Positions 1,496 through 42,907 are shown, counted from the stretch's first letter. The stretch: 64,000 bases of DNA from Isosphaeraceae bacterium (GCA_965277595.1 CBDIDH010000002.1:2893737-2957736), one strand, 5' to 3'. Made by a program: numbers and translations. Notes: a model not told the origin generated them from the letters alone.

Positions 1496-1512
1496 TCGAA
1501 GAGACGTCCACG

Positions 1513-3023: not shown

Positions 3024-3069
3024 CGTGATCACGGAAGGTCACGTGTCTCGTTGGCAGGAGGAAGGAGCC
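3024..3069 (+). promoter_or_regulatory. candidate CsrA binding sites in the csrA leader (GGA in a hairpin loop plus GGA-rich Shine-Dalgarno)
   Basis: CGTGA(3024-3028)/TCACG(3039-3043) stem with a 10-nt loop containing GGA (3033-3035). The SD region CAGGAGGAAGGAG (3055-3067) carries three GGA just before the ATG at 3074. Confidence 0.3.
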
Positions 3070-3073
3070 GAAG

Positions 3074-3343
3074 ATGTTGGTCCTGTCCCGACACCGCGAC
3101 GAAAGCATCATCATTGGTGACGACATCGTCATCACCGTGGTGGATATCCGGGGCGATAAGGTTCGATTGGGGATCGCGGCCCCGATCGAGATCTCCGTAC
3201 ACCGCCAGGAGGTGTACGAAGCGATCCAGCGCGAAAACAAGCAAGCCAGCCGACTGGACCCCCAGGACGCTCGCAAGCTTGAACACCTCAACCCCCCGGT
3301 CCGGCGCGACCTGCGTCGCCCCAGGACCGCCGACGACCTCTGA
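3074..3343 (+). CDS. csrA: carbon storage regulator CsrA (89 aa, long C-terminal extension)
   Basis: MLVLSRHRDESIIIGDDIVITVVDIRGDKVRLGIAAPIEISVHRQEVYEAIQRENK is an unmistakable CsrA/RsmA fold sequence. A strong SD lies upstream. Confidence 0.93.
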   Translation: MLVLSRHRDESIIIGDDIVITVVDIRGDKVRLGIAAPIEISVHRQEVYEAIQRENKQASRLDPQDARKLEHLNPPVRRDLRRPRTADDL

Positions 3344-3589
3344 TCGATCTCGCAGCCGATCTAGGCCAACTTCGGACATGAGTTGAGGCGGCGTGATCCG
3401 TGGCGTTTTCGCCCGGAACACCCCGCGCGGGATCGGACCGGCCGGTGACTTCACCCCTCACCGAACCCGTCCCGCCCCCCTGTCAAGTCAAGGCGCTCGC
3501 AACAGGCCGGACGGACGCCCCTCGGTTCATCCCGAGAGTCGTCCGCCCGGCTCGCTTTATTTCCAGGATGACCGACCTGAACGCTCAAG

Positions 3590-3713: not shown

Positions 3714-4235
3714 CTAATCCAGATCAATAATCACGTCGTCATCGTGAGTGCCCGGCTTCGAGGCGAGCAGCTTGCGCCAGCCGGCATCGTCATCGCTGTC
3801 ATCGTCAAGGATCTCCAGGGCCTCGGCCTTACCCTCGGAGGACGGGGGCGGGAACCCGGAATCGGATTTCGCGGGCGCGGCCTTGGCAACCGCCACGGGC
3901 CGACCGGTCCCCTTACCAGGGTCCGGTCGTTCCGAAGGGCCAGGGACGTCGTCGGGTCCAAGATAGACCCGCATCTTGTAGCCGCCGAGCGTGATCCGGT
4001 CTTCGGGCAAGAGCGCGGCCCAGCGAATCTTTTGACCTTTGACCTTGGTTCCGTTCGTGGTGGCGAGATCGCGAATCACGAGCAGTCCGTCGGTTTTGAC
4101 GACCACGCAGTGCCGCTTCGAGAGGCTATGGTGATCAATCACGACGTCGCAATAACCCTTGCGTCCGATCACCGTGAGGTCCTTCGTGATCGGAATGGGT
4201 GGGTCCCCGTTACTGGGCACTAGCTCGGCTTTCAT
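3714..4235 (-). CDS. FHA domain-containing protein (173 aa) with acidic C-terminal tail
   Basis: ATG at 4235 inside the long ORF 3714..5426. LTVIGRKGYCDVVIDHHSLSKRHCVVVKTDGLLVIRDLATTNGTKVKGQKI is a typical FHA core. Confidence 0.82.
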   Translation of the reverse strand: MKAELVPSNGDPPIPITKDLTVIGRKGYCDVVIDHHSLSKRHCVVVKTDGLLVIRDLATTNGTKVKGQKIRWAALLPEDRITLGGYKMRVYLGPDDVPGPSERPDPGKGTGRPVAVAKAAPAKSDSGFPPPSSEGKAEALEILDDDSDDDAGWRKLLASKPGTHDDDVIIDLD

Positions 4236-7517: not shown

Positions 7518-9119
7518 TCAATGGCGGAAATGGCGACGCCCGGTCAGGATCATGGCAAGACCGTGTTCATCACAGGCTTGGAACGTCTCGGCGTCGCGTT
7601 TGGAGCCGCCGGGCTGAATGATGGCGGTCACGCCAGCGGCGGCGGCGGTGTCGGGGCCGTCGCGGAACGGAAAGAAGGCGTCCGAGGCGAGCACAGCGCC
7701 CTGGGCTTTTTCACCAGCCTTGGAAACGGCGATCCGAACCGAGTCCAGCCGACTCATTTGCCCGGCGCCGACGCCGACCAGTTGATTGCCGCGAACCAGA
7801 ACGATCGCGTTCGATCGCACCGACTGACAGACTCGCCAGGCAAAGGCCAGGGCGGAACGTTCCTCAACGGTCGGCGGTCGCTGCGTGGCGACGGTTCCGG
7901 CGGCGGGATCGTCTTCCATCGTGTCCCAGTCCTGAACGAGCAGACCCCCTTCAACCCGCCGGAGGTCAAAGCCAGCCGGTGCCGGGGCTTCGGGACCGAT
8001 CGCGGCTTCCAGGTCCAGTAAACGGACGCTGTTTTTCCAGCTAGGTTTCGTCGTCAGAAGCTGAAAGGCGTTCGGCTCGTATCCCGGCGCGAGGATCGCT
8101 TCGATGAACCGGCCTGGCGTGCAAATCCGCTCCGCCGTGGCCAGGTCCACAACGCGATTCAGGCCGACGATACCGCCAAAGGCACTGACGGGATCACCCT
8201 CGTAGGCCAGCTCAAACGCCTCCGCGAGGCTACCGGCCACCGAGGCACCGCAGGGGTTATTGTGCTTGAGAATCGTCGCGGCCGGCTCGGCGAAGAGGCG
8301 GATCAGGCGCAGAGCGCTATCGAGGTCAAGAAGGTTGTTATACGAAAGTTCCTTGCCGTGGCGGATCTTCGCCGAGGCGAGGTTCGGGCCGGTCGTCGTT
8401 GGCTCAACGTAAAAGGCGGCCCGCTGGTGCGGGTTCTCACCGTATCGAAGGATCGAGCGCCTCGTGAAGGTGGGTGTGAAGGTCGCCGCGAACGCGTCGG
8501 GTTGGGATGCGTGCGACGGAGCGGACTCGCGAGCGAGGTAATCGGCGATTATCCGGTCGTACTGGGCGGTTTTCTCGAAGACGACGGCGGCGAGTCCGCG
8601 TCGAAAACTCTCGGTCGTGCCGCCGAGGGTTTGAAGCTGCTCGATCAGGGCAGGGTACTGGTCGGGGTCGACGACAACGGCGACATGCGCGTGATTCTTC
8701 GCCGCGCCTCGGATCAGGCTGGGGCCGCCGATGTCGATATTCTCGACAGCCTCTTCAAAGGTCACGCCGGGCTTCGCAACCGTCGCCTCGAACGGATAAA
8801 GATTGACGACGACAAGGTCGATCGGCTCAATCGCCTGGTCGCGGAGTGCGTCGAGATCACCGGGGACATCGCGGCGGGCGAGAATGCCGCCGTGGAGCTT
8901 AGGATGCAGGGTCTTGACCCGACCGCCCAGAATCTCGGGCTGGCCGGTGTAGGCGGAGATCTCGGTCACGTCCAGCCCCGCATCGGCGAGCGCGGTGCGC
9001 GTGCCTCCGCTGGCGAGCAGGTGAACTCCTTGCGAGGTGAGGACCCTGGCGAGTTCGATAAGCCCCCGCTTGTCGGAGACACTCAACAAGGCTCGACGGA
9101 TCGTCACCACTGCGTCCAT
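7518..9119 (-). CDS. purH: bifunctional AICAR formyltransferase / IMP cyclohydrolase
   Basis: Full-length match to the PurH pattern ([36 protein letters not shown]-terminal GGSKRD...RHFRH). Confidence 0.95.
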
Positions 9120-9275
9120 TCGACTCGTCCTTCACTCCGGCCCGCACAGGGGCCTTCAAATGCCGATCGTATGAGAGATCCCGGGGAACCCCCCCAGGTG
9201 ATGGCGAAACCCGCCAGCGCCCCTCGCGGAGAGCTGACGGGTTGAATCCGACGTTTGATTGAACGCGTAAGCGTG

Positions 9276-10586
9276 TTATTTCTCAGGCGCGGCATCGGCT
9301 TCAGGTTTTTCCTCGGCGGGAGCGGCTTCGGGTTTCGGAGCGCTGGCAGGCGGAGGAGTGAGCTGGACACCCTCTCGGGGAATTTCACCGAAAGGCAGAG
9401 CTTTCGGGTCGCGCAAGGGAACCGGAAGCGTCTGGCCGATCTCGCGAAGCCCGATGATCATGCCCGATGTCGTCCCAAAATAAAGGCGGTCATTCTGCCG
9501 GTTCGTCCAGGCAAACTCATAGGCCCTCAGGTTCAGCCCGGCCCGTTCATAGGTGGCGCGAGGGTCGGCGATCATCTGTCCGGTGCCACGGTCCACAACA
9601 AAGAGGTCGTTATCCGTGGATTCCAGATAGACCCGCTTCGGGCCGACGCCAAGCAAGCGTCCGCCTCGCGTCGTGTTCGTCCATCGGGGTTTTCCGTTGG
9701 TCGGGTCAACCGACGTCAACTGGCCGTCGGTATTGACGACATAAATGTCGTTGCCGGCGACCATGGGCTCCTGCGTGATGGGCGACCCCGAGGGAAAGGT
9801 CCAGAGAACCTTGGACGTGAAGAGGTCAATCCCGTAGAGGTTGCGATCCGCCGAAGGGGCGATCAAAAGTCGCGTCCCATGCGTGCCTAAACCCTGGCCG
9901 ATCGGGCCTCCGGTCGCGATCCGGTAAAGCATCGTGGATTCTTCCGACATCGCGACATACACCTTGCCGTCGTCGCTGCCGAAGGCCACCATTCTCATCG
10001 CGGGCAGGGGACGGGTCTCAATCGCGCCATTCGCCTGCCAGTTCCAGGCGTCGAGCGGCCTGCTCGAAATGATCGGCTCTTTCTTCTCATTGACCGTCTT
10101 GAGGCCAAAGGCGTAAATCTTGCCATTGGCAAGGCCAACCATCACCCGATCCTCGTCGGCCGCGACCGAGCTACTCGGCAGCGCACCCAGCGGTGCTCGC
10201 CAGATTGTCGAGCCGGTCCGGCGATCGATCGCGTAGAGCTTGTCCAGATTGGTGGCGAAGGCGGCGAACGAGTTGGCCGCGACCGGCCGGGCTCGGGCGG
10301 CTCGCGTGCCGAGGCGGTTGGTCCAGAGGGCCTGCCCCGACTCAGCGTCATACGCGTGGAGATAGCCGCGGTCAGTCTGCGCGAAGAGAAGGCCGTCGGA
10401 CATGCTCAGCCCGAGCAACCGCTCCTCGTTCTGCATCGGGACGATCAGCATGAGCTGACGTTCCAGGCCCACCCGCGCCAGGGCTGTCCGCGTCGGCACG
10501 AGATCGCGCGCCAGCGGAACCTGTGCCCTTGCCGGCAAGGCCGTCGCGAGCATCAGCAGAATCCCCAGAATACATCGACGGGACAT
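9276..10586 (-). CDS. PQQ-like beta-propeller repeat protein (BamB-like), exported
   Basis: Signal peptide MSRRCILGILLMLATALPARAQ. Repeated ...G.LYA.D..TG...W strands typical of PQQ/BamB propellers. Pro/Ala/Glu-rich tail. Confidence 0.7.
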   Translation of the reverse strand: MSRRCILGILLMLATALPARAQVPLARDLVPTRTALARVGLERQLMLIVPMQNEERLLGLSMSDGLLFAQTDRGYLHAYDAESGQALWTNRLGTRAARARPVAANSFAAFATNLDKLYAIDRRTGSTIWRAPLGALPSSSVAADEDRVMVGLANGKIYAFGLKTVNEKKEPIISSRPLDAWNWQANGAIETRPLPAMRMVAFGSDDGKVYVAMSEESTMLYRIATGGPIGQGLGTHGTRLLIAPSADRNLYGIDLFTSKVLWTFPSGSPITQEPMVAGNDIYVVNTDGQLTSVDPTNGKPRWTNTTRGGRLLGVGPKRVYLESTDNDLFVVDRGTGQMIADPRATYERAGLNLRAYEFAWTNRQNDRLYFGTTSGMIIGLREIGQTLPVPLRDPKALPFGEIPREGVQLTPPPASAPKPEAAPAEEKPEADAAPEK

Positions 10587-29205: not shown

Positions 29206-30825
29206 TTAGTTCGTGTTCGGAATCAACGTGATCTTGTCCGGTGACGATGGGTAGGCATTTTGGTCGGTGACACCATTGTTATCATCATAAATGTGGAACC
29301 CGCCCGTCCCCACGGCATGGGTTGCCGACAGAGTCCCGTCGGCATTGACAAGGAACGCCATCGCGAAGTCGATACCACCGAGAGGATTCCCGGAGGAGTC
29401 TGTTGGACTGGTGATATCAAGCTCTGGTTGGTTCGGCGTGGTGTAAAACTGTCCGACAAAGGGCACATTGATGCCGCCAGGCCAGTTCGTGATGGTGAGC
29501 CCACCCGTCACGGAATAATATCCCGGAGAGATCAGGGTCGCTTGAATCCCCACCAGATAAATATTCTTTGGCTTCGAAGGCGTGGGGGTCAGCGAGATCG
29601 GATTTCCATTGCCGTCGGTGAGATCATCGACGAGGGTTCCCACATAGTCCGTGTAGAGACCGGGGGCGGAGGTCGGCGTGGCCGTGGGGGGCGGAGTGGA
29701 ACCTGGAGAGATGAGCGTGGGCGGTGGGGCGTTCGTTCCACCGACGTGGTACGCGAAGAGGTCATAATCGAGAGCGAGGCTGTCGTACTCGAACGCATAG
29801 ATCGGAAGGGTCGAGACGGGCGTTCCCGTGCCATAGGTGAGCAGGTAGGTTTCCGTGGAAACCGTTCCCTGAAACTGGATCTCCGGGGCGAGCGGGCTGG
29901 AGTCATACGTGCTGAAATCCTGGCCGTTGCCCGGGGCCAGGGTATAACTTGTCCACGGCGACGATTCGTTCCAGCGAAACTGGAAGGTAATGCTGTTCAA
30001 GGTGGTTTCGTTGTCGATCTGAACGTTTTGCAAAACCGGGGCCGCCTGGGTTGGTCCGGGAGCGAGCGTTCCCGTCTGGACGTAACCGGTGATTTGCCTG
30101 TCACCGTGCGAAGGGTCACCGAACTGGACGATGCGGACCCCGCCTGGCGCGTCGATGATCCACTGGCCCGTTGAAGGCCGGTAGACGGCAAGCTCGGTGT
30201 GGCCAACGCCGTCATAATCACCGGGCGCGGGAATGTCGCCTCTCGCCGGGTCGCCGAACTGGTAAACTTCCAGGCCACGGGGGCCGGCGATCAGCCATTG
30301 GTCGGTGGCGGGGCGGAAGACAGCGAGTTCCGTGGTCGCGGTCCCGTCGTAATTGCCCGGCACCGGGACGTCACCGTGCGCCGGGTCGCCGAACTGAACG
30401 ATATTCGACACGGGTTGATCAAGGATCCATTGATCCGTTCCAGGCCGGAAAACGGCAAACTCCTGGATGTTCGGGATGAGGTACGCGCCGGGCACCGGGA
30501 TGTCACCGTGGGCAGGGTCTCCGAACTGGGTGATAACCCCATTGTTTAAGATCCACTGGCCGGTGCCGGGGCGGTAGACGGCGAGTTGCATCGACTCGGT
30601 ACTATCAAACTGGTTATAAACGCCCGGGACGGGAATATCACCCGCGGCCGGGTCGCCAAATTGCTCGATGAGTGTGTTTTCTTTGGCGGTTTTAATGATC
30701 CACTGATCCGTGGCCGGGCGGAAGATCGCGAAGTCGGATGTTGTCGCGCTCATCAACCCGCGGGTTTCGAGGGGAATAACTGAGAATGGATAGGCACGAC
30801 TCGTCTTCGATTGCCGCCGACTCAT
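29206..30825 (-). CDS. FG-GAP/VCBS-like repeat protein (beta-propeller-like), probably exported
   Basis: Five to six tandem ~45-aa modules, FRPxTxQW(I/L)...QFGDPxxGD(I/V)PVPG(x)Y. C-terminal half unassigned. Confidence 0.55.
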   Translation of the reverse strand: MSRRQSKTSRAYPFSVIPLETRGLMSATTSDFAIFRPATDQWIIKTAKENTLIEQFGDPAAGDIPVPGVYNQFDSTESMQLAVYRPGTGQWILNNGVITQFGDPAHGDIPVPGAYLIPNIQEFAVFRPGTDQWILDQPVSNIVQFGDPAHGDVPVPGNYDGTATTELAVFRPATDQWLIAGPRGLEVYQFGDPARGDIPAPGDYDGVGHTELAVYRPSTGQWIIDAPGGVRIVQFGDPSHGDRQITGYVQTGTLAPGPTQAAPVLQNVQIDNETTLNSITFQFRWNESSPWTSYTLAPGNGQDFSTYDSSPLAPEIQFQGTVSTETYLLTYGTGTPVSTLPIYAFEYDSLALDYDLFAYHVGGTNAPPPTLISPGSTPPPTATPTSAPGLYTDYVGTLVDDLTDGNGNPISLTPTPSKPKNIYLVGIQATLISPGYYSVTGGLTITNWPGGINVPFVGQFYTTPNQPELDITSPTDSSGNPLGGIDFAMAFLVNADGTLSATHAVGTGGFHIYDDNNGVTDQNAYPSSPDKITLIPNTN

Positions 30826-31064
30826 TGAGTATTTTCCGCCTTGATATGTGCCGATTCGAAGGATCTTGTGCCTCGTATTTCCTCGTTCGTTAAAAACTTA
30901 CCAGGAGATGACGAATTCGACAATTTGCCAGTTTGTAAAACGACCTTTTCCATCCTCGGCATGCTCACTGTTTGAAGCCAACCGATGAAAAATGACGACA
31001 AGAATCGACGTTATCAGAAGGATATCGCGACTGTTTTTACCGAGTTCGAGCGAAAGAGGGATCG

Positions 31065-31532: not shown

Positions 31533-31843
31533 CGGAGTGGACGGCCTTTCCGTGAAGGGGCATCATCGGGAGTGTTCAGCAGGATTCAAAAGACACGGAC
31601 CAGAGCCTCGGAATTTTTGCGGAAGACGCCTTGCGAGGTTTTCCGGTTATGGATAGCCTGCCGGGGCCTTGTCAGCACGTCACACGGCCAGATCCGGCGC
31701 CCCCTGCTTTCCGCACCTTCCGAGACGCCATTGAACGCGGCGTGAGTCGTACCGAGGCCCTCCAGGGATGGAACGCCTTTGATCGACACGCCCCGTTCGT
31801 GTTTCACGAAGAGACCTGTCTCCAAGGACGGAGAACGCCGAAA

Positions 31844-34800
31844 ATGAACCGCCACGTCGTCGCCGGAATGCTTGGTCTGGCCCTGGCGGGCTGCTCGCTC
31901 GACCGCTCGCTCTCTTCACGCACGAGACCGACCCTCGCGCCGGTCGAGCTAACGCCCCCACTCAAGACAATTCACGAGACGATTAACCAGGAAAATCCAG
32001 GCGTCGATACCGACATGGTACGCGCCGGACACCCCGTCGCCGCGACAAGCCCGATGCTCGCCAGCGCCACCGTTCCGACCCCGACAGCCCCGCGCCAGCC
32101 TGTCGCGACGGTTCAGGAACCGACGCTCGCGATTCCCCCACAAACGCCCGCGCCCGTGACCGAAGCCCCCGAGCCGAATTCCGTGACGGTCCAGACGCCT
32201 CCCCGCCCGGCACCTGCCCCGGAATCGACACCGACACCTGAACCCGCACCGGCACCGCCGACGGATGCCACGCCGCGACCCCAACTCGCCACGGTCAACG
32301 GAACTCCAACAGGCCGGGAACGCCCCGCGCCGTTTGCTCGGCTCTTTGGTCGGGCCAGACCGCGCGCCAGGGCGACTGCACCGGCCCAGGTCGTGGCGAC
32401 CTCGCCCGCGGAAACCGCGACAGCCGTGGCGGTGGCCACCCCTTCCGCCGATGCGGCGGTCGAAGTCAAGACCGAGGTCAAGCCCGACGCGCCGAAGTTT
32501 GACCGCCCCGCGCCCGATCCCGAGATGACCGCGCCGATCGAGGCCGATCCACCCGCACAGGTTCAGACCGAAAGTCCGGCCCCCGCTGTTCCTGAATCGA
32601 CCCCCGCGCCGGTCGTCTCCGTCCCTCCGGCGCAAGGCAATCCGCTCCTGGAACCCCCGCCGGTTGCCTCGGCGTCCGCCCCGCCGCAAGCGGCGCCGGT
32701 CGTTTCAGCACCGGCACCGGTACCGGCACCGGTTTCTGTTTCGGCTCCTGCTCCTGCTCCGGCTCCTGCTCCGGCTCCCGTGCTTGTGAATCCGCCTGAG
32801 GCGCGGGGGGCGGCCCCGGTGGTCGTCGACTTGCCTTCGGTTGAGTCGGCGACACCGAAGGGGGTCAGTCGAGACCCGCTCCTCGGCGCCAACCCGGACA
32901 TCATGCCCGACCTCAATCTCGGATCGACGCCCAAACCACCTGTCAACGACGCGGCGGTCGCGCCCGCTCAGGCCCCGGCCGCCTTGCCTGTCCCGGACCC
33001 GGTTCCGGCTCCGGCCCCGGTTCCAGCGCCGGAGCCTCTCGCCGCGGAGCCGACACAAACACCGGCCCCGGCCCCGGCCAAGGTGCTCGCGGCGAAGACG
33101 GATGAGGCCGCGCTTCCCGGACCCGTCGAGAGTCCGGCCGAGTCAGCCGCGTCGGCCGCTCCGCCCGTGATCCACCTCGCGCCGCCGACCGATCTGGAAT
33201 CGTCACCGGCCCAGACCGAACCGGCTCCGACTCCGTCTCCGGCCGCTCCCGGGTCGACCTCGGCCGACCCCTTGCTCGGGCCGAACCCCGAAGTCATGCC
33301 CAGCATCGAGACGCCGCCGGTTCGCAAGCCGGCCGCGGAGACTCCGCCCGTCTCGGCGCCCGCGACCTTGGAAAAGTCCACCTCGGCCGACCCTTTGCTC
33401 GGGCCGAACCCCGAAGTCATGCCCAGCATCGAGACGCCGCCGGTTCGCAAGCCGGCCGCGGCAACGCCGGGTGTTTCCCTGCCGACCGACCCGGCCGCGA
33501 CCCCCGCGAAGGTTGAACTTCCCGCCGCGGAAGCGTCGAAGGACGCACCCTCGGCGTCTCTTGAAAGCCAGGGCGCGGCGATGACTCCCACGCCGATTCC
33601 ATCGCTCTCGCCCTCCGTGCCGACCGCGGGCGAGACGCCGACACCGATCCCGCCTGCCTCGGCCCCAAAGCCCGCGCCTCCCGCTCCGGCGAGCGACCCG
33701 ACACCCAAAACCAACGAACCCAAAACCACGACACGCGACCCGTTGCTTGGTGCCGACCCGGACATCATGCCGACGATCACCCCTCCGCCCGCCAAGAAAG
33801 CGGAAACGATCGCCGAGCCGGTGGAATTACCGCCGCTCTCGCAACCCGGAGCCTCGAACACCGTCGCGCCCGAGCGGGCCTCAGGCTTTGCCTCCATGCC
33901 CGTCTCGGCACCCGGCGGACGTGACACCAACACCAACACGAACGATGCCCAGACGGTTCGCCCCCCTTTGAAAATGCCCGACGAGCCGACCGCCGTGCGA
34001 TCGAAAGCGGCGACTCGAACGGTCTTCGTGCTCGGGCAGCCGGTCGCCTGGGTCGGCGATGAGATCATCACCTTGCATGAACTTCGAGTTGTCTTTCGCC
34101 AGCGATGCAAGGGAATGGCGCTCAATCAACTTTCGGAAGACGACCTTTACCGGGCAAAAAAGACGATCTTGAATGACATGATCGACCGCGCCATGGTTCT
34201 TCAGGAAGCCAAGCGCGAGTTGAAAGATCCCAAGAAATTCCAGAAGTTCATGGAGGTCGCCGACCTTCAATTTTACGAAGAGGAAGTTCCGACCCTGATC
34301 CGGCAGGCCGGGGTTGCCAACATCCACGAGTTGAAAAAGAAAATGACGGATCGTGGCGAGTCGCTCGATGAGATCCGCGAACAATTCCGCCTTGAGTTCC
34401 TCTCGCGGGGCTACATGGAGCAAAAGCTCGGCCCGAAAATGAAGGTAGACCTGCTTGAGATGCGGGATTACTACAAGGCTCACCTGCGCGACTTCGACCA
34501 GCCCCCCCAGGTCACCTGGCGCGAGGTGCTGGTCGAGGTCGACCGCTGCAAGAGCCAGGCCGAGGCCCGAGCGAAGGCCGATGCTCTGCTGGCCCGACTC
34601 CGACACGGTGAAGACTTCGCCAAGCTCGCGTCGACCGAGAGCCACGGCCCGAACCGATCGGCCGGAGGACTCTGGAAGACCTCGCCGGGAAGTTACAGCG
34701 TCCCCGCCGTGAACTCGGCGCTGGAGACCCTGCCGATTGGCCAGATCAGCCCGGTGATTGAAGGCCCGACGAGTTATCACATCCTCATCGTCGAGGCCCG

Positions 34801-34990
34801 CCGCGCGGCTGGACCCGCCACGTTTGCCGAGGTCCAGGACAAGTGCTCGAACGCGATCCGCCGCAAGAAGATCAACCGCGAGACAACCGCGTTCATGGAC
34901 AAGCTTCGAAGCCATACCGTTGTCCGCACGGTCTTCGACGATCCCGACGTCACTCGAACCTCGGCCGAATCGGTCAGCCCCCGCCGTTGA
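31844..34990 (+). CDS. lipoprotein peptidyl-prolyl isomerase (SurA/PpiC-like) with ~750-aa Pro/Ala-rich spacer
   Basis: ATG at 31844. Lipobox LALAGC. The C-terminal region has a SurA-like chaperone segment and a PpiC rotamase (FAKLASTESHG...GGLW...GQISPVIEGPTSYHILIV). Confidence 0.75.
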   Translation: MNRHVVAGMLGLALAGCSLDRSLSSRTRPTLAPVELTPPLKTIHETINQENPGVDTDMVRAGHPVAATSPMLASATVPTPTAPRQPVATVQEPTLAIPPQTPAPVTEAPEPNSVTVQTPPRPAPAPESTPTPEPAPAPPTDATPRPQLATVNGTPTGRERPAPFARLFGRARPRARATAPAQVVATSPAETATAVAVATPSADAAVEVKTEVKPDAPKFDRPAPDPEMTAPIEADPPAQVQTESPAPAVPESTPAPVVSVPPAQGNPLLEPPPVASASAPPQAAPVVSAPAPVPAPVSVSAPAPAPAPAPAPVLVNPPEARGAAPVVVDLPSVESATPKGVSRDPLLGANPDIMPDLNLGSTPKPPVNDAAVAPAQAPAALPVPDPVPAPAPVPAPEPLAAEPTQTPAPAPAKVLAAKTDEAALPGPVESPAESAASAAPPVIHLAPPTDLESSPAQTEPAPTPSPAAPGSTSADPLLGPNPEVMPSIETPPVRKPAAETPPVSAPATLEKSTSADPLLGPNPEVMPSIETPPVRKPAAATPGVSLPTDPAATPAKVELPAAEASKDAPSASLESQGAAMTPTPIPSLSPSVPTAGETPTPIPPASAPKPAPPAPASDPTPKTNEPKTTTRDPLLGADPDIMPTITPPPAKKAETIAEPVELPPLSQPGASNTVAPERASGFASMPVSAPGGRDTNTNTNDAQTVRPPLKMPDEPTAVRSKAATRTVFVLGQPVAWVGDEIITLHELRVVFRQRCKGMALNQLSEDDLYRAKKTILNDMIDRAMVLQEAKRELKDPKKFQKFMEVADLQFYEEEVPTLIRQAGVANIHELKKKMTDRGESLDEIREQFRLEFLSRGYMEQKLGPKMKVDLLEMRDYYKAHLRDFDQPPQVTWREVLVEVDRCKSQAEARAKADALLARLRHGEDFAKLASTESHGPNRSAGGLWKTSPGSYSVPAVNSALETLPIGQISPVIEGPTSYHILIVEARRAAGPATFAEVQDKCSNAIRRKKINRETTAFMDKLRSHTVVRTVFDDPDVTRTSAESVSPRR
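33257..33475 (+). repeat. near-identical 123-bp in-frame tandem duplication
   Basis: ACCTCGGCCGACCC(C/T)TTGCTCGGGCCGAACCCCGAAGTCATGCCCAGCATCGAGACGCCGCCGGTTCGCAAGCCGGCCGCGG occurs at 33257 and again at 33380. It encodes TSADPLLGPNPEVMPSIETPPVRKPAA twice. Confidence 0.9.
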
Positions 34991-37133
34991 TCGAACAAGG
35001 TGTTTGTGATCGTTCGAGCCGATCGGCTTCGCGGTTGTCGGCCTCGGCATTCGTTGAATCGTGTCGGATGGCATGCGCCTGGGCGCGTCGGCGAAACGCC
35101 GCGGCATCGCGCGGATCAATGCGAATGGCCTCGGAATAATCGGCGATCGCCCTGGCGTGGTTGCCCGCCTTGAGGTAGGCGTCGCCTCGGGCGAGAAAGT
35201 CCGCGCCGGAGATCGGTCGGAAGGCGGGATCTTGCACGGCGTTCGGATCAAGGGCCAGGGCTTGTCGAAAATCGGCGTTGGCCGAGGCGATGTCGCCCAG
35301 CTTGACCAGGAGTTCCGCTCGGCAGACGTACGGTTCCGACCAGCCCGGCGCGAGGCGAATGGCGGCGCCAAAGTCCTGAATTGCCCGACGATTCTGACCG
35401 TTTCGGGCCAGGACCCAGCCCCGGCATTTGTAGGATCGGACGAGGCTCGGGTCGAGGGCGATCGCGCGGTCAAAGTCCGCCAGCGCGAAAGGGTCCTGGA
35501 CGCGCTGGAGGTACGCCTCGCCTCGCATGTTGTAGGCCCAGGCGTGCCCGGGAGCGAGCCGGATCACCTCGGTATACATGTCGATCGCCGCATCGAGATG
35601 ATTTTGCGAAAGCTGTTCCCAGGCCGAGCGCATCCGGGCCTCGATCGCCTCGGGGCTTATCGCCCAGCGCACCGGAACGAACGTCCGATCCCCGGGGCGA
35701 ACGTACGCGTCCTGGTCGTACAGGACCTCCGCGCCTCGCTTGACCTGAACTCGATGGCGGCCGCCGCCGAGGTTGACCCGACCCGTCCGCCGCGAATCGA
35801 TCTGGATCGACTCTCTATCGACTCGGAGTTCGACTCCCATCTCAAGAACCTCGACGACGATCGTCCCTGGTCTCGTCGCCAGTCGAACGGCGAAGACGCC
35901 CGCCAGAACCGCGAGCAAGAAAATCAGGGCCAGAAGCCGACGCCGATTCAACCAGCCATTGCGTTTAACGGACCGGCTGCCGCCGATCGTGCTGGACGGG
36001 GCCGTCCAGGTCTCGCTCCCTCGCGCCTGGGACGAAACAGGGTTCGCGATCGCCGTCCCGAAGTCGGAGGGAGGGAGGTCCGGTAGCCGCGTCCAGTCGG
36101 AAAGATCGGCTATCGACGCGAAGGCTTCGGCCGCGCGGAAGGGGGCAAGGGCCTCGGCCACGGCGGCGGCGGTGGGAAAACGGTCTTCCGGGCGTTTCGC
36201 CATCAACCGGCGGACGACCGAACCCAGGCCCCGAGGGATGCCCGGCCGGAGCGCCTCGACGGGCGCGGGGTCGATCTCGCGGTGCTTGACCAGTTTTTCC
36301 AGAGGCGTGCCACCGGGAAAGGGGGGACTTCCGACCAGGAGGAAGTAGAGCGTGCAGCCGAGACCGTACAGATCCGACCGCGCGTCGGCCTGGCGGATGT
36401 CCATCGCCTGCTCGGGCGCGAGGTAGTCGGGCGTCCCCAGAACGGAGCCGATTTGTGTCAACTCGTCGGCAACACCTTGAGGCGCAAAGGCGAGGCCAAA
36501 GTCGAGAACCTTGACGACCCCGTCCTCGTCGGCCCTGAGAAGGTTAGACGGCTTGATGTCGCGGTGGATCAGACCTCGATCGTGGGCATGCGCCAGGCCC
36601 AGAGCGGCCTGTCTGGCCACCTCGGCGGCGGCGGCCGAGGAGAGCGGACCGCGATCGCGTACCAGACGCGCCAGGTCAAGCCCGACCACGTACTCCATGA
36701 CAAAGTAGTGGACCCCCTCGGCCTCTCCCGCGTCAAAGGCGGTGACGATGTGAGGGTCGGAGAGTCGACCGGCCAGCTCGACCTCGCGATAAAAGCGGCC
36801 GACGGCGTCGGGGCGCGACAGCCATTCGTGTCGGATGATCTTCAGGGCGACCAGCCGCTTCATCCGGCGATGACGAGCCTTGAAGACCGTTCCCATCCCG
36901 CCCTCGCCCAGAGGCTCAAGCAAGACGTACGCGCCCAGCCAGAGCCCCGACCGATCGCCCTGTAAAAGCCGGTCGATCTGGTAGCGCGTCAGCCAGGCGC
37001 GACCGACAAGCTCCTCGGCCAGGAACGTCGGATCGTCGTCCGAGGCGTGGGCGGAATCTCGAACCTGGGCGATCTGATCGTCTGTCAGCAAGTCGGCGGC
37101 GGCAAGGGCGTCAATGAGGTCGCGACTGGTCAT
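34974..37133 (-). CDS. serine/threonine protein kinase with TM segment and C-terminal TPR repeats
   Basis: Hanks kinase motifs (GEGGMGTVFKA, HRDIKPSNLL, DFGLA, GTPDYLAPE), a hydrophobic segment (LLALIFLLAVLAGVFAV), then TPR-like repeats. ATG at 37133 preferred over the TTG at 37157. Confidence 0.9.
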   Translation of the reverse strand: MTSRDLIDALAAADLLTDDQIAQVRDSAHASDDDPTFLAEELVGRAWLTRYQIDRLLQGDRSGLWLGAYVLLEPLGEGGMGTVFKARHRRMKRLVALKIIRHEWLSRPDAVGRFYREVELAGRLSDPHIVTAFDAGEAEGVHYFVMEYVVGLDLARLVRDRGPLSSAAAAEVARQAALGLAHAHDRGLIHRDIKPSNLLRADEDGVVKVLDFGLAFAPQGVADELTQIGSVLGTPDYLAPEQAMDIRQADARSDLYGLGCTLYFLLVGSPPFPGGTPLEKLVKHREIDPAPVEALRPGIPRGLGSVVRRLMAKRPEDRFPTAAAVAEALAPFRAAEAFASIADLSDWTRLPDLPPSDFGTAIANPVSSQARGSETWTAPSSTIGGSRSVKRNGWLNRRRLLALIFLLAVLAGVFAVRLATRPGTIVVEVLEMGVELRVDRESIQIDSRRTGRVNLGGGRHRVQVKRGAEVLYDQDAYVRPGDRTFVPVRWAISPEAIEARMRSAWEQLSQNHLDAAIDMYTEVIRLAPGHAWAYNMRGEAYLQRVQDPFALADFDRAIALDPSLVRSYKCRGWVLARNGQNRRAIQDFGAAIRLAPGWSEPYVCRAELLVKLGDIASANADFRQALALDPNAVQDPAFRPISGADFLARGDAYLKAGNHARAIADYSEAIRIDPRDAAAFRRRAQAHAIRHDSTNAEADNREADRLERSQTPCSINGGG

Positions 37134-37330
37134 TGTCAAGAACGTCCCCGGCGGCAAAGGGGGGTTAAGTTGCTTGATCGGGGTTTCGAAACACGTTCTC
37201 CCCGAATTATCATGCCACCGCAGACGTTGATTTCACGAATTTTCAACCGAAGTCACGAGAAACGGCGTGTCAAGGTGAGCAAGTCCGGTCCTTCGCGTTT
37301 GGCCCGGACCTGCTCGATGAATTGGGCGAA

Positions 37331-37534
37331 TCACTGATGGTCATAAAAGCCGTGGTCGCACTTGCAATAGTTGCCCGATCCTCGAAACTTCGAACAATCG
37401 CACTTCCGGCACTGGCCGTAGCCGTAGGCCGTCGAATTCCGGGCCTCGACCGGCAGGACCGTGAAAAGGCTGCCGAGAAGGCTAAGAACGGCCACGGCCA
37501 CGAGCTGAATCGAACGACGCCTTGCATGGGTCAT
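37331..37534 (-). CDS. small exported Cys-rich peptide (67-aa precursor, ~36-aa mature)
   Basis: ATG at 37534, 9 nt after AAGGAG. Signal peptide MTHARRRSIQLVAVAVLSLLGSLFTVLPVEA. Predicted mature peptide RNSTAYGYGQCRKCDCSKFRGSGNYCKCDHGFYDHQ. Confidence 0.5.
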   Translation of the reverse strand: MTHARRRSIQLVAVAVLSLLGSLFTVLPVEARNSTAYGYGQCRKCDCSKFRGSGNYCKCDHGFYDHQ

Positions 37535-37694
37535 CCTGGCAAACTCCTTGGATTTGGGAAACAAGGTCAGGTGAGCGGTCGCCCGCGTCAGGCGGTCAAC
37601 CGGACGAAGCTTCGTTTTCAAACCAGCGGACTCGAAACGCATCAGGGATTCATTGATGACTTCACAAGAAGGAACCGATCCGACAAGCCGAGGC

Positions 37695-38261
37695 TCAATC
37701 GCCGACAACGCCAAGGCCCGCCGCGGCAAGACTGGAGTCTCCGCCCCAGTTATCGTTGGCGAGTTGATTTCGGGTCGTCAGCGTGCTCAGGCCAACTTCC
37801 GAGGAATAGGTGCTTGAGGCGGCCGTGGTTGGATTCACGACCGTCGTCGGCGTGGTTCGGCCACCGGCGTGAGCGGCCAGGTAAAGGACGTCGTAAAGCA
37901 TGTCGTACTGAAGCTGAGCCGTCCCCCCCTTGAAGTTGGCGATGGCGGAAAGCCCATCACGCTTGAGGAAGTTGTTCAGGTTCGAGATTGAGGTTAACTG
38001 GCCGATCACGTTGCCGGCCGTCGCGGTGCCGTGATGGACGGCGATCTGAACGTAGGCCGAGAGCAAGGGCTTCGCGAAGTAGGCCGCGATCGCCTGGTCG
38101 GCCGCGATCACCTGGCTGGCGGTTACCGTGGAGAGGACCTGTCTTGATTCCAGACCTTCGACCCCAGGCCGTGAACGGCGCGAGGTTGTTGCGCTGACCT
38201 GGGTGGTTGAGCTGGCGCGTTCGATCGTCGCGGAGCCGGCGAGGTTGTCATCGACGTTCAT
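37695..38261 (-). CDS. hypothetical protein (188 aa) with N-terminal RR...GLESRQVLS motif
   Basis: ATG at 38261 after AGGAG. Ala/Thr/Ser-rich; no family recognised. Confidence 0.5.
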   Translation of the reverse strand: MNVDDNLAGSATIERASSTTQVSATTSRRSRPGVEGLESRQVLSTVTASQVIAADQAIAAYFAKPLLSAYVQIAVHHGTATAGNVIGQLTSISNLNNFLKRDGLSAIANFKGGTAQLQYDMLYDVLYLAAHAGGRTTPTTVVNPTTAASSTYSSEVGLSTLTTRNQLANDNWGGDSSLAAAGLGVVGD

Positions 38262-38341
38262 CAAGGTCTCCTGGTTTTCGAGAAGCGAGGTCGTGGTTTG
38301 TCTCCGACCGACGGGGGTCAAACTCAAATCGTCGATCCTCA

Positions 38342-38365
38342 TACGGACGACTTGAAAACTGTTCC
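38342..38365 (-). promoter_or_regulatory. candidate ECF-type promoter (GGAAC-N15-CGTA) facing the 188-aa gene
   Basis: The minus strand reads GGAACagttttcaagtcgtcCGTA, about 75 nt upstream of the ATG at 38261. It lies in the gap shared with the divergent ECF sigma gene. Confidence 0.3.
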
Positions 38366-38446
38366 AGCAAATCACAAAAAAATTTTGTCGGCCCGGGCGC
38401 GCCGTCTCGCTAGACTCTTTTTGAACAATCGGAGGGGACTCGAACT

Positions 38447-39205
38447 GTGACGAGCGACGGACCCGAGGCGCGCATCAGCCAGATTTCAACCCTCTGGGCC
38501 GAGGTGCTTCGTGCCCATGAAGGGCCGCCCGATGAGGCTCGGGAAGCTCAGCGTCTTCTTTTGCAGCGATACGCGGCGCCGATCTACCGCTACCTGAGAG
38601 GAGCCTTGCGCGATCCCGATGCCGCCGACGAGGCATTTCAGGACTTCACCCTCCGATTCGTCCAGGGCGACTTCCGCCGTGCCAACCCCGAGCGCGGTCG
38701 CTTTCGCGCCTTCTTGAAAACCGTGCTCTATCATCTGGTGATCGACCACCAGCGACGGTCTCGGCGGCAGCCGTCGACGCTGACGATCGACCCGGCCGCT
38801 TCGCCCGAGATCACGCAGATCGAAGCGGACCTTCGATTCACGGCCGCCCTGCGCGAGGAACTGATGAGCCTGGCCTGGGAGGCTCTCGCCAACCTTGAGC
38901 GTCAAACCGGCGACCCGCTTCATACCATTTTGCGAGCCAGGACCGAATTTCCCGATCTTCGCTCTCATGAGCTGGCGAATTGGCTCGTCGGTCGGCTCGG
39001 TAAAAACGTCTCGCCGCAATGGTTCCGCAAGAGGCTCAGTGAAGCCCGAGCGAAGTATGCCGACCTCTTATTGTTGGAAGTAGCCCGATCACTGCCGGAG
39101 ACCGCCACCGTGGCCGATCTCGAAGACGAGTTGATCGACCTGAAACTGATCGAGTATTGCCGGGACGCCCTGTCAAGGTGGCGCAAGAACGCGCCCCTTT
39201 CGTGA
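38447..39205 (+). CDS. ECF-type RNA polymerase sigma factor
   Basis: Region 2-like LLQRYAAPIYRYLRGALRDPDAADEAFQDFTLRFV...FRAFLKTVLYHLVIDHQRR and a region 4-like helix-turn-helix (LRSHELANWLVGRLGKNVSPQWFRKRLSEARAKY). GTG start. Confidence 0.7.
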   Translation: MTSDGPEARISQISTLWAEVLRAHEGPPDEAREAQRLLLQRYAAPIYRYLRGALRDPDAADEAFQDFTLRFVQGDFRRANPERGRFRAFLKTVLYHLVIDHQRRSRRQPSTLTIDPAASPEITQIEADLRFTAALREELMSLAWEALANLERQTGDPLHTILRARTEFPDLRSHELANWLVGRLGKNVSPQWFRKRLSEARAKYADLLLLEVARSLPETATVADLEDELIDLKLIEYCRDALSRWRKNAPLS

Positions 39206-39456: not shown

Positions 39457-40299
39457 GTGTCGGTCCGACCCGACATCGCGTCGGGCCTGACGGATGACGC
39501 GTTCATGGCACTGGCAACCACACGATCGACGCCCTTGCCCGTTGGCGACGCCGAGCCGCCACTGGATACGACGATTCAACTCGTCACGCCCGAGCGGATC
39601 GTCTTTCAATATCCGCTGGCCGGTCCGTTTCGAAGAGCCTTCGCGTTCCTGATCGACCTCGCGCTGCTCTCCGCGCTGGTCTTCGTGGCCTTCATGCTCG
39701 CGTGGATCTTGTCTCTGAGCGGCACGGTCTCGGGATTTGGTCCGGCCCTGGTGATCTATTTCGTGTTGACCTGGGGCTATGGTTCCGGCTGCGAGGCGTT
39801 CTTCAACGGGCAGACGCTCGGCAAGCGCGCGGTTTCGATCCGGGTCGTGACCGAAGAGGGAATTCCGATCACCGGCGCCCAGGCGGTCCTTCGCAATCTC
39901 GTGGGGACGGTGGATGGTTTCTGGGCCTTCTTCTTCATGCTCGGCCTGACGAGCATGCTGTTGACAAAGCGTTTTCAGCGGCTTGGCGACCTCGCCGCGG
40001 GGACGATGGTCGTCGTGGAAAAACGCCCGAAGCGTTCGGGCGTGGTCCGGGTTCAGGAACGCGCGATCGAGGCCCTCTTGCCCTGGCTCCCCTTGCGGAT
40101 CGCCGCGGGGCCGGAACTCTCTCGGGCTCTGTCCGATTACGTGAAACGCCGGGGCCTCTTCAGCCCGCCGCTCCGCGAGGAGATGGCCGCGCCTCTGGCT
40201 CGACCGCTTCGCGCCCGGTTCGGCCTCTCGGCCGAGGCCTCGACATCGTCTGACGCCGTGCTCTGTGCCGTCTATCACCGCATCTTCCTCGGGGAGTGA
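39457..40299 (+). CDS. RDD family membrane protein
   Basis: GTG after GGAGAG. FRRAFAFLIDLALL..., GQTLGKRAVSIRVV...LRNLVGTVD is the RDD domain pattern. Confidence 0.8.
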   Translation: MSVRPDIASGLTDDAFMALATTRSTPLPVGDAEPPLDTTIQLVTPERIVFQYPLAGPFRRAFAFLIDLALLSALVFVAFMLAWILSLSGTVSGFGPALVIYFVLTWGYGSGCEAFFNGQTLGKRAVSIRVVTEEGIPITGAQAVLRNLVGTVDGFWAFFFMLGLTSMLLTKRFQRLGDLAAGTMVVVEKRPKRSGVVRVQERAIEALLPWLPLRIAAGPELSRALSDYVKRRGLFSPPLREEMAAPLARPLRARFGLSAEASTSSDAVLCAVYHRIFLGE

Positions 40300-40306
40300 C
40301 CGGACG

Positions 40307-41308
40307 ATGAGGGTTGCGGATCGCCTGGAGAAACGCGAGACGACCTGGCGCGAGCTGGACATCCTTCTCGCCAAGCTCGCCTCGGAACCGCTGAAGCGCG
40401 CCAGTGCGTCGGAGGTCATCCGCCTTGGCGAGCTGTATCGATCGGCCTGCACCGACCTGATGCTGGCCGAGGCGCACGACATGCCCAGAGACACCGTGAA
40501 TTACCTTCACGGTCTCGTCGGCCGGGCACACAATGCGGTGTATCGCGGCAAGGGGTTCCGGTTTTCCGACTGGGGCGCCGTGCTTTTTGGAGAGGTCCCC
40601 CGACGCCTTCGATCGGACCCGGCCTTGCGGCTCGCGGCGCTGGTCTTTTACGGCGGCTTTCTCGTCTGCGCGCTTCTGGCCGCCGGTCGACCGGGCTTTG
40701 CCCAGAAGATCGCCGGGGAAGACTTCGTCGCGAACGTTGACACCATGTACGAACAGCCGATCGACACCGTTCGCAAGGATGGCGCCGACACGCTGATGGC
40801 CGGCTTTTACATCCAGCACAACGCCTCGATCGGCATCCGATGCTTCGCCTGGGGCCTCTTTTTCGGCCTGGGAAGCCTTTATGAGTTGATCTCGGAAGGG
40901 ATGGTCCTCGGCTCTCTTTTTGGACACATGGCCACAAGCCCGAACGCGCGCAACTTCTACACGTTCGTCACCGCTCACGGACCGTTTGAGCTGACGGCGA
41001 TCGTCTTTTCCGGTGCGGCCGGACTGCGACTCGGCTGGGGCCTGATCGACACGCAAGGAGAGTCCCGAATCGATTCGCTGCGCCGCGAAGCACGCCGATC
41101 GTTGCCGATCGTCGGCGCCGCGGTCGTCCTCTTCATCTTCGCCGCCTTTCTGGAAGGGTTTGTCTCGCCATCGAAGCTGCCGTACCCGTACAAGGCGGCC
41201 ATCGCCATCGCCAGCGCCTCGATGCTGGTCGTGTACATAACCATCGGCGGCCGGGCTTTAACCACGGCCGAAGCGGGCACACCGCCAAGCCCGGGACGAT
41301 CTTCTTGA
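40307..41308 (+). CDS. stage II sporulation protein M-like (DUF95) membrane protein
   Basis: ATG 8 nt after the RDD stop. N-terminal soluble helix region, then multiple TM helices with HGPFELTAIVFSGAAGLRLG, typical of SpoIIM/DUF95. Confidence 0.7.
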   Translation: MRVADRLEKRETTWRELDILLAKLASEPLKRASASEVIRLGELYRSACTDLMLAEAHDMPRDTVNYLHGLVGRAHNAVYRGKGFRFSDWGAVLFGEVPRRLRSDPALRLAALVFYGGFLVCALLAAGRPGFAQKIAGEDFVANVDTMYEQPIDTVRKDGADTLMAGFYIQHNASIGIRCFAWGLFFGLGSLYELISEGMVLGSLFGHMATSPNARNFYTFVTAHGPFELTAIVFSGAAGLRLGWGLIDTQGESRIDSLRREARRSLPIVGAAVVLFIFAAFLEGFVSPSKLPYPYKAAIAIASASMLVVYITIGGRALTTAEAGTPPSPGRSS

Positions 41309-41342
41309 CCCCCTTTTTTGCACGATCCGGGAGCGCACCTCG

Positions 41343-42125
41343 TTGGCCGACGACCAGACGTTGATCCAGATCCGCGAACGATCGTTTCTTGACGTGCTCG
41401 ACCTGGCCCTGGTCGTGATCCGGCGCCGGCCGCTGACGCTCGGCCTCGCCGCGGTCGCGGGCGTGGCTCCCTGCATCGCCCTGAATGCCCGGCTGACGTC
41501 GGTTCCCGAATTCAACTCGCTCTGGTATGTTTACCTGCTCGCCATCGAGGCCCCCTGGGCCACCGCTCCGCTCACGGTCGTCCTCGGCGCCTTGATGTTT
41601 GGCCAGAGGCCGACGCCCTGGGGCGTCTTCAAGACGCTGGTGAAAGGGCTACCGGCCTTGTTCCTGTATCAGTTTTTGCTTCGGATCGTGCTGATTGTGT
41701 TTCCGGTCCTTTACCCGATCGTCCCCACGCGGCTCGCCTTCCTCAACGAGGTGATCTTGCTGGAGCGTGGGCGAACTCTGGGTGTGATCCGGCGGACATC
41801 GACCCTCTGCGGCACTCGCGGGGGCGACCTGTTTGGTCAGTGGATCGCTCAGATCCTTTTCGGCCTTCTGTTCGTGACCTGTTTCTGGTTCGGCACCGGG
41901 TCGATGATCTCGGCACTCATGACGTCGGAAGTCACCTGGGATCGACCCGAACTCGCCGCGATTTACGGCCAACGGTTTCAGGTCGGCGTCTGGCTCTCGA
42001 TCACCTTCTTCGGCGTCGCCCGATTCTTGACCTACATCGATCATCGCATCCGGCTCGAAGGCTGGGAGGTCAGGCTCCGCCTCCGCGCCGTCGGTCGACA
42101 GCTTGAGGAGGCCGCGCGGTGGTAA
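41343..42125 (+). CDS. hypothetical integral membrane protein
   Basis: Six or so hydrophobic segments. Sits inside the MoxR-associated operon. TTG start. Confidence 0.55.
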   Translation: MADDQTLIQIRERSFLDVLDLALVVIRRRPLTLGLAAVAGVAPCIALNARLTSVPEFNSLWYVYLLAIEAPWATAPLTVVLGALMFGQRPTPWGVFKTLVKGLPALFLYQFLLRIVLIVFPVLYPIVPTRLAFLNEVILLERGRTLGVIRRTSTLCGTRGGDLFGQWIAQILFGLLFVTCFWFGTGSMISALMTSEVTWDRPELAAIYGQRFQVGVWLSITFFGVARFLTYIDHRIRLEGWEVRLRLRAVGRQLEEAARW

Positions 42126-42907
42126 CGCTCGTCTCGGCCTTCACGCTCTGGGCGGCTCTCGCCGCGACATCGACACCCATAACAACGCCACGGCCTGAGC
42201 CTGGCGCGGTCTCGGTTCCTCCCGTTCTCAAGAGCGAGTCGTTTCCCTGGTATGACGCCACGACGGGGCGAGTCAAGCCGATGCTCTCTTGGGAACTTCG
42301 GTTTGGCTGGCTCAACTCCACGCTGGACTGGATCGGGGAACGGCTCATGGCGATCGTCAACTGGTTCCGCTGGCTCAATCGCTGGCGCCTTCCCGGCGTC
42401 GCGGGGGCCGGAGACCTGCTCATGATCGGCCTGGCGATGCTCTTTCTGACGCTCGTTCTGGTCGTGCTTCTCGAATTCCTTCGCCGGTATCGACCGCTCG
42501 CCGGACAGGATGCGGCCCGACGCGCGTTGATTCAAACCGGCTCGGCGCAGCGAATCGAAGGTCTGCCCGCGGGTGTCCGCCTGGATGCGGGCGATCCCTG
42601 GATCGAGGCTCAGAAGCTTCGTGAACGGGGCGATTACGCGGGCGCCGTGGTGTATCTGTTCGCGCATCAGCTTGTCGCGCTTGATCGTCTCAAACAGCTT
42701 CGCCTGGTTCCCGGTCGGACCGGCCGACAGCTTGTCCGGGCCGTCGCCGATCGACAGCTTCGAATGCTCGTCGAGCCAACGCTCCGGCTCTTCGAAGCCT
42801 TTTACTACGGCCATCGCGTCCCCTCGGCCGAGGCGTTCGAGGCCGTCTGGTCGAACGCCCTACAGTTCCAGACGCGACTGACGACCGGATCGGAGGCCGG
42901 TCGATGA
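42119..42907 (+). CDS. DUF4129-like domain protein
   Basis: GTG overlapping the upstream stop. TM helix, then the C-terminal pattern GRTGRQLVRAV...LRLFEAFYYGHRVPSAEAFEAVW, as in DUF4129. Confidence 0.6.
   Translation: MVTLVSAFTLWAALAATSTPITTPRPEPGAVSVPPVLKSESFPWYDATTGRVKPMLSWELRFGWLNSTLDWIGERLMAIVNWFRWLNRWRLPGVAGAGDLLMIGLAMLFLTLVLVVLLEFLRRYRPLAGQDAARRALIQTGSAQRIEGLPAGVRLDAGDPWIEAQKLRERGDYAGAVVYLFAHQLVALDRLKQLRLVPGRTGRQLVRAVADRQLRMLVEPTLRLFEAFYYGHRVPSAEAFEAVWSNALQFQTRLTTGSEAGR

Follow-up and report, generated by a model that had tools for sequence, protein, structure and literature searches.

What are two small genes doing between a sigma factor gene and the kinase gene with which it appears to be paired? 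The question is posed by a locus of an Isosphaeraceae bacterium, within a 64,000 nt stretch of DNA (hereafter the window), where a gene for an extracytoplasmic function (ECF) type sigma factor is transcribed divergently from genes for a 188 residue protein, a 67 residue peptide and a membrane Ser/Thr kinase, in that order on the minus strand. The locus is a further example of the known planctomycete pairing of sigma factors with Ser/Thr kinases, carrying in addition two genome-specific genes that are probably outputs; the wedging of two small genes between sigma factor and kinase is peculiar to one genome and does not amount to a new type of system. We lean modestly toward a reading in which the small genes are lineage-specific, sigma-dependent outputs of a divergent promoter, and not conserved parts of the signalling pathway.

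A check of ORFs (open reading frames) in the window found all four where the original prediction had placed them (Table 1), and its gene descriptions stand: an ECF-type sigma factor, a membrane Ser/Thr kinase with extracytoplasmic TPR repeats, a 188 residue protein of no recognised family, a Cys-rich peptide with a signal peptide, and no classical anti-sigma factor, nothing resembling a gene for one having been seen in the region. The sigma factor comprises sigma2, a long linker, a sigma4-like helix-turn-helix (HTH) and a C-terminal extension of ~40 aa. Its match to Sigma70_r2 (E 6.7e-9) scores 35.9 bits against a Pfam cut-off of 24 bits, and the profile of its family alignment, A1, matches the ECF sigma factor 6dxo in the PDB (E 6.6e-4). 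Region 4 went undetected by any hidden Markov model (HMM) in Pfam or NCBIfam. An AlphaFold model built from 31 homologues (predicted local distance difference test, pLDDT, 85.5) returned ECF sigma factors as all of its top 11 Foldseek matches in the PDB, among them SigL, AlgU, SigE, SigH, SigK, RpoE and SigW, over 176-203 aligned columns and with probabilities of 0.87-1.0, at E-values of only 0.017-0.3; since these matches cover both domains, they lend moderate structural support to the presence of sigma4/HTH and to an ECF layout without regions 1.1 and 3.

The sigma family is large and planctomycete, with at least 226 full-length homologues of ~250 aa at 45-56% identity. Region 2.2 of the window sigma factor keeps an acidic DAADE (DPDAADEAFQDF), in accord with the family consensus DPDAADELxQEF in A1. 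Thr15 and Trp17, in the N-terminal segment, are invariant across the family alignment and Cys238, in the C-terminal extension, is conserved; all three are candidate regulatory sites. The kinase, for its part, runs from an N-terminal helical region through the kinase domain, a transmembrane (TM) segment and a beta-rich spacer to the TPR domain. Its Hanks catalytic motifs are intact (VALK95, HRD190, DFG211, APE239), and because the single TM segment separates the kinase domain from the TPR repeats, the latter would be extracytoplasmic. By these features the protein looks like an active, one-pass membrane kinase of the Hanks type with its TPR domain turned outward.

The locus was compared with a sample of 80 loci of the same sigma family taken from species-representative genomes, the window's own genome excluded, and with a wider set of 91 loci (L001-L091) searched by tblastn and phmmer. 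A kinase domain is encoded within 10 kb of the sigma gene in 54 of the 80 loci. In 29 the kinase gene directly adjoins it, co-directional and downstream in 19 and divergent, across gaps of ~100-300 nt, in the other 10; the kinase gene of the window is divergent and 1.3 kb away. Pairing of ECF sigma factors with Ser/Thr kinases, named in the original prediction as a planctomycete theme, is indeed documented (PMC7826278, PMC8999054), the kinase-linked groups being ECF43, 59-62, 217, 267 and 283 (PMC7826278). The window has its best counterpart in L011, where the sigma factor is 50% identical, the kinase is 38% identical over its full length and shares the same architecture (N-domain, kinase, TM, spacer, TPR), and no other gene separates the directly divergent pair.

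What connects the small genes to the sigma factor is a candidate ECF-type promoter in the 185 nt gap between the sigma and 188 residue protein genes, facing away from the former and toward the latter. It came to light through the enrichment of a dyad in the sequence before sigma genes, and a position weight matrix (PWM) was built from 10 of its sites. This PWM recovered six more, independent sites, identically placed and oriented (L017, L026, L028, L037, L042, L054). The final PWM matched 16 of the 81 loci over which promoters were counted, no more than 350 nt before the sigma start and on the opposite strand, where 0.43 would be expected from background; the same scan gave no match on the sigma strand and hence no hint of classical sigma autoregulation. 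The window copy has its -35 element, TGGAACA, at 38366..38360 and its -10 element, CGTATG, at 38345..38340, with a 15 nt spacer; it scores 26.2, the next best site in the 64 kb scoring 12.1, and is in this sense a single strong copy. Weaker versions occur in L006 and in L011, the latter 148 nt before the start of the kinase gene. The -10 element of the window overlaps an ATG that lies upstream in the same frame, and this speaks for the annotated start of the 188 residue protein; the leader of that gene would be ~70 nt long. Upstream of the peptide and kinase genes of the window the PWM found no copy, and a scan for sigma-70-type promoters gave nothing above chance.

SigW-type ECF promoters have the form TGAAAC-N16-CGTA. 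The motif described here resembles them in its two blocks, an AAC-containing -35, a CGTA -10 and ECF-typical spacing, but differs in its -35 variants across loci (TGTAACA/TGGAACA-N15-CGTATG), in its 15 nt spacer and in being found opposite the sigma strand only. The accessible ECF literature yielded no description of TGTAACA-N15-CGTATG and exported targets.

Genes behind the promoter in other loci appear to encode mostly exported proteins. Four loci carry behind it proteins with an N-terminal LE-x-LE-x-R motif that is also present in the 188 residue protein: in L006 a 1188 aa cadherin/Big_9 protein is followed by a kinase, in the gene order of the window; in L045 the target is a 1648 aa protein; and in L043 and L067 distal promoter copies precede giant proteins. 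In L017, L028, L037 and L054 the targets are His/Gly-rich LysM+TIG proteins with Sec signals, in L012 and L044 other secreted proteins, and in L011 the kinase itself. Sigma-factor-like genes also lie behind the promoter, at L019:~8280-9300(-), L053:~8450-9770(-) and L043:~8690-9330(-), the last an ECF gene followed by one for a 978 aa kinase, which hints at sigma cascades. The LysM+TIG genes (L017:~8700-9770(-), L028:~1460-2400(-), L037:~8810-9730(-), L054:~670-1710(-)) are found in Pirellulales-type loci; the Gly/His-rich N-region of their products holds up to 24 His, with runs such as HHNHHGHHNHHNHHH, and these conserved proteins may be metal- or cell-wall-related targets.

The 188 residue protein is a true orphan: it matches no family in Pfam or NCBIfam, a word-indexed search of 5.8e9 proteins returned only the protein itself, and neither tblastn nor phmmer (E <= 10 against six-frame segments of the 91 loci) found a relative in related loci. 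Its gene is similar to neighbouring genes in GC content at third codon positions (GC3). The protein has no Cys and no TM segment. It opens with 27 polar residues and then the motif RRSRPGVEGLESRQVLS; its core is helical and its tail rich in Ser and Thr. The original prediction described both small proteins as exported. This fits the peptide, with its hydrophobic N-terminal segment; in the 188 residue protein a hydrophobic signal peptide is missing (maximum KD19 1.38), leaving its N-terminal motif as the sole basis for the claim.

That motif, in general form an Arg-rich segment and then [LV]E-x-LE-x-R-x-[LV]-L-S, recurs in related loci in 13 long ORFs, close to their N-termini; these ORFs carry PKD, RTX, beta-helix and cadherin domains. 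These domains imply that the carriers are extracellular, which in turn makes export of the 188 residue protein plausible. The motif resembles an uncharacterised export or sorting signal without a hydrophobic core; a literature search with its motif strings found no paper. Its places are 38130-38180(-) and 29209-30897(-) in the window and L006, L011, L015, L035, L037, L039, L043, L045, L046, L063 and L067 elsewhere, and many of the carriers are giant planctomycete proteins.

The 67 residue peptide, in contrast to the orphan, has relatives. Its gene has an AAGGAG Shine-Dalgarno sequence 9 nt 5' of the ATG and a GC3 of 0.71. The NCBI annotation gives a longer, 103 aa form (P0002), while the closest homologue, P0003, which is 83% identical over the C-terminal 35 residues, favours the 67 aa start. 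From that start the signal comprises RRRSIQ, a hydrophobic region (residues 7-31) and VEA. A full HMMER scan of 1.84e9 proteins found 43 small representatives of the family at E <= 1e-3, which share at their extreme C-terminus the motif G-Y-G-x-C-x2-C-x-C-x2-F-x-G-x-G-x2-C-x(1-4)-C-x-H-x4-H. In this Cys5His2 domain G40, C42, C47, C59 and H61 are invariant, and at least 90% of members keep G38, C45, C57 and H66. N-terminal signals are of the twin-arginine (Tat) type in 13 of the 41 members examined, Sec-like in 17 and absent from 11. Several members have canonical Tat motifs (RREFLK, RRNFLK, RRQFL), and some match Tat-signal models in NCBIfam or Pfam; the window peptide begins with RRRSIQLV followed by a strongly hydrophobic, Sec-like region.

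No Pfam, NCBIfam or PDB sequence family matches the peptide family, weak matches to FAM221 and L37e having been dismissed as noise, and a literature search with its motif strings found nothing. These sequences form a small, undescribed family of Cys5His2 mini-proteins. The mini-domain is modelled by AlphaFold 2 with a pLDDT of ~87, and its best Foldseek matches in the PDB are non-significant (E >= 1) and fall on zinc-knuckle and zinc-ribbon domains (the zinc-binding insert of MetRS, RanBP2-type zinc fingers), which are likewise short, Cys-rich and beta-hairpin-like. It differs from zinc knuckles in its ligand pattern, C-x2-C-x-C-x9-C-x-C-x-H-x4-H, and in that most members are exported, by Tat or Sec. 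The domain is probably metal-binding. In P0130 and P0160 two or three mini-domains stand in tandem, joined by Thr/Pro-rich linkers, which shows the domain to be an independent folding unit.

The genomic contexts of the peptide family are heterogeneous. Its genes lie by a dynamin-like protein and an ABC/FtsX transporter in L083 and L084, by ceramidase/HEAT genes in L088 and L089, by a HEAT protein in L082 and by a WD40-TPR gene in L091, the one locus that came from JGI metagenome contigs (in the second scan; the first peptide scan had found none). Only L001, the locus of P0003, has an ECF sigma factor and a kinase nearby, at 2.5 kb, both of families different from the window's pair; its kinase lacks a TPR domain and extends only ~45 residues beyond the membrane. 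L001 also contains a 45 nt promoter-like element in two copies that are 82% identical (4153-4197 and 6500-6544), one divergent from the ECF sigma gene and upstream of an LRR/HEAT operon, the other 35 nt upstream of the peptide gene. L001 looks like an independent parallel in which the peptide is linked to an ECF-type promoter. Two further observations concern these loci. The L001 kinase (2229-3494(+)) has an N-terminal H-x3-C-x2-C, ZAS-like motif (HVEECAHCQQAL) before the kinase domain and resembles a fusion between a kinase and a zinc motif of anti-sigma type. In three loci the peptide gene is directly beside one for a HEAT_2 protein (L082:681-1514, L001:5576-6331, L088:3428-7567); HEAT proteins are common in these genomes, and the adjacency could be due to chance.

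Taken together with the promoter, these genes suggest the following scheme. The kinase would take the place usual for an anti-sigma factor, sense an envelope signal via its TPR domain and, by analogy, activate the sigma factor by phosphorylation. Active sigma factor would then read the divergent promoter (38340-38366, minus strand) and drive the 188 residue protein gene and after it the peptide gene, which is placed in the same predicted transcript because no second promoter lies between the two. Both products would be exported envelope proteins. Transcription may also read through into the kinase gene; as the promoter of L011 stands directly before its kinase gene, such continued transcription in the window would give positive feedback. 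Between the peptide and kinase genes, folding of 37134-37335(-) predicts a strong stem-loop that begins 16 nt past the peptide stop codon; a simple terminator scan requiring a T-run makes no call there, and the structure is possibly a terminator, an attenuator or an mRNA-stabilising element.

Several known systems are built alike. EcfP/PknT of Vibrio parahaemolyticus and EcfK/PknS of Xanthomonas citri, both of ECF43, also have an ECF sigma factor beside a membrane Hanks kinase without an anti-sigma factor, an arrangement shared by the window; a kinase gene likewise adjoins the sigma gene in the 29 pairs. Members of ECF43 have been shown to be directly activated by phosphorylation, a Thr replacing the acidic DAED of region 2.2, and their envelope or secretion target genes lie nearby (PMC8999054; PMC13147305). 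Where ECF43 sigma factors lack DAED and have a phospho-acceptor Thr (STTA), however, the window sigma factor retains DAADE and is in this respect not ECF43-like (PMC8999054). It is also ~70 aa longer than ECF43 members, owing to the N-terminal segment with T15 and W17, the long linker and the C-terminal extension with its conserved Cys. The planctomycete groups ECF59-62 and ECF217 share its taxon, Ser/Thr-kinase pairing, lack of an anti-sigma factor and DAED-like motif (PMC7826278, PMC8999054), a likeness that assigns it to no group.

Our preference for sigma-dependent outputs must be tempered by several points that weigh against it. About 80% of family loci have no promoter motif at the threshold used. 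That the adjacent sigma factor reads the promoter is argued from position, conservation and ECF-like architecture only, and the 188 residue ORF is an orphan whose expression is predicted. The hairpin and a 197 nt gap precede the kinase gene, which may or may not be co-transcribed. Finally, the retained DAADE means that phospho-activation as in ECF43 is not simply transferable.

The original prediction assigned the small proteins a different role, in which the peptide and/or the 188 residue protein is exported and acts on the kinase by binding its TPR domain, whether as autocrine cue or as co-sensor, the kinase in turn controlling the sigma factor. TPR domains commonly bind peptides, both small genes lie immediately 5' of the kinase gene on the same strand, the peptide would share a compartment with the TPR domain, and P0003 too is encoded near an ECF sigma factor and a kinase. 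A search for homologues nevertheless revealed no conserved synteny, L001 being the one other locus where a peptide member is near an ECF and kinase pair, and there the kinase offers no TPR domain for it to bind. In the L011 module and 9 other divergent pairs no further gene would fit between sigma factor and kinase, the 188 residue protein has no relatives in any search, the other peptide members lie by ABC/FtsX, ceramidase/HEAT and WD40-TPR genes with no ECF and kinase pair nearby, and 11 of the 41 lack a signal peptide altogether. The absence of synteny is essentially the finding that the original prediction had named in advance as refuting it, and we regard the cue as improbable, even though, as a feedback loop, it could coexist with sigma-dependent expression; the conserved ECF-type promoter before the 188 residue protein gene points to outputs instead. 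It is less improbable, if still unlikely, that the small ORFs are unrelated passengers, recently acquired or arisen de novo in an expanded intergenic region, the 188 residue ORF perhaps not even expressed. The orphan status of that ORF, a GC content of 0.58-0.61 at 37.0-38.5 kb, below that of the flanking stretches, and the many unrelated contexts of the peptide family would all agree with this, and at ~40 ECF sigma factors per planctomycete genome (PMC7826278), with dozens of kinases besides, chance proximity is not rare. Yet both ORFs are preceded by good Shine-Dalgarno sequences and resemble genes in their GC3 (0.71-0.76), the conserved promoter is placed exactly for the 188 residue protein gene with its ~70 nt leader, the same promoter precedes LE-x-LE-x-R proteins in four other loci, and in L001 the peptide is linked to an ECF promoter a second time, independently.

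Two further identities are largely excluded and strike us as very remote: that the peptide is the precursor of a RiPP (ribosomally synthesised and post-translationally modified peptide), or that one of the small proteins is an anti-sigma factor of unconventional type. Genes beside an ECF sigma gene often encode anti-sigma factors, the peptide contains Cys, Ser and Thr, and the kinase domain has sub-threshold matches to the kinase parts of LanL and LanKC lanthionine synthetases. A class III/IV lanthipeptide system was rejected, however, because the LanL/LanKC match concerns the kinase part only (89 against 650 bits) and TM and TPR segments stand in place of lyase and cyclase; the peptide moreover begins with a hydrophobic signal peptide and not a RiPP leader, and family members that have no neighbouring kinase retain its invariant Cys/His pattern. 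Anti-sigma (ASD or ZAS) identity was likewise rejected, neither small protein having a family match or the layout of a cytoplasmic N-domain plus TM segment: the 188 residue protein is without Cys or TM, no more than 6 residues precede the hydrophobic segment of the peptide, and neither protein was found in the 80 sigma-family loci.

The recurrence of Cys/His-rich and His-rich proteins among the exported targets invites speculation about an envelope metal function. In its fullest form, which we consider quite doubtful, the 67 residue peptide would be a founding member of a family of periplasmic metal-binding mini-proteins, mostly exported by Tat or Sec, with the peptide gene driven by ECF promoters in at least two unrelated ECF/kinase circuits as part of a kinase-driven envelope response to metal stress or for metal buffering, with possible feedback on the outside domain of the kinase.

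The remaining surroundings of the locus differ from those of its relatives. Downstream of the kinase gene, and overlapping it convergently by 17 nt at its own 3' end, a gene at 31631-34990(+) encodes a SurA/PPIase-like protein of 1119 aa, whose N-terminal ~750 aa form a Pro/Ala/Thr-rich low-complexity region with internal repeats. On the other side, 3' of the sigma gene, 39457-42907(+) holds a same-strand series of genes for membrane proteins that overlap or follow one another closely. One belongs to the RDD family, one is SpoIIM-like and two, of ~260 aa, are unassigned; none is conserved in other sigma-family loci. The flanking genes of the window as a whole (PPIase, RDD, SpoIIM-like and others) had no match in the 80 sigma-family loci, and an Rfam scan of the intergenic regions gave nothing relevant.

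Table 1. Features of the sigma/kinase locus, in window coordinates, with the evidence for each
Feature	Position	Strand	Evidence
ECF-like sigma factor, 252 aa	38447..39205	+	Pfam Sigma70_r2, homologues, AlphaFold 2/Foldseek
Putative ECF-type promoter CTGGAACAGTTTTCAAGTCGTCCGTATGAGGA	38336..38367	-	PWM score, conservation
Orphan 188 aa protein	37695..38261	-	AGGAG Shine-Dalgarno, GC3 0.76, no family match
N-terminal motif R28-S44 RRSRPGVEGLESRQVLS, Arg-rich + LE-x-LE-x-R-x-x-LS	38130..38180	-	Recurrence in related loci
67 aa mini-protein, signal peptide + C-terminal Cys5His2 domain	37331..37534	-	Shine-Dalgarno, hydrophobic segment, homologue P0003
Cys/His mini-domain GYGQCRKCDCSKFRGSGNYCKCDHGFYDH, residues 38-66	37337..37423	-	Family conservation, AlphaFold 2
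Strong stem-loop, 12+2 bp, no U-tract	37277..37315	-	RNA fold of 37134-37335(-), minimum free energy and centroid
Hanks-type Ser/Thr kinase, 719 aa	34974..37133	-	Pfam Pkinase + TPR, TM segment, catalytic motifs
Kinase domain, residues 69-322	36168..36929	-	Pfam Pkinase E 8e-46
Kinase TM segment, residues 397-422	35868..35945	-	Single TM
Kinase TPR domain, residues ~490-690	~35034..35666	-	TPR families E 1e-24

How kinase-linked ECF sigma factors outside ECF43 are activated, and what they control, remains a question for the field (PMC8999054). For one large planctomycete sigma family the present analysis yields a candidate promoter, candidate regulatory residues and a first outline of a regulon, made up of predicted exported proteins of which several are His-rich or carry the LE-x-LE-x-R N-terminal motif. 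That motif and the uncharacterised family of Cys5His2 mini-proteins come as by-products of the same comparison.

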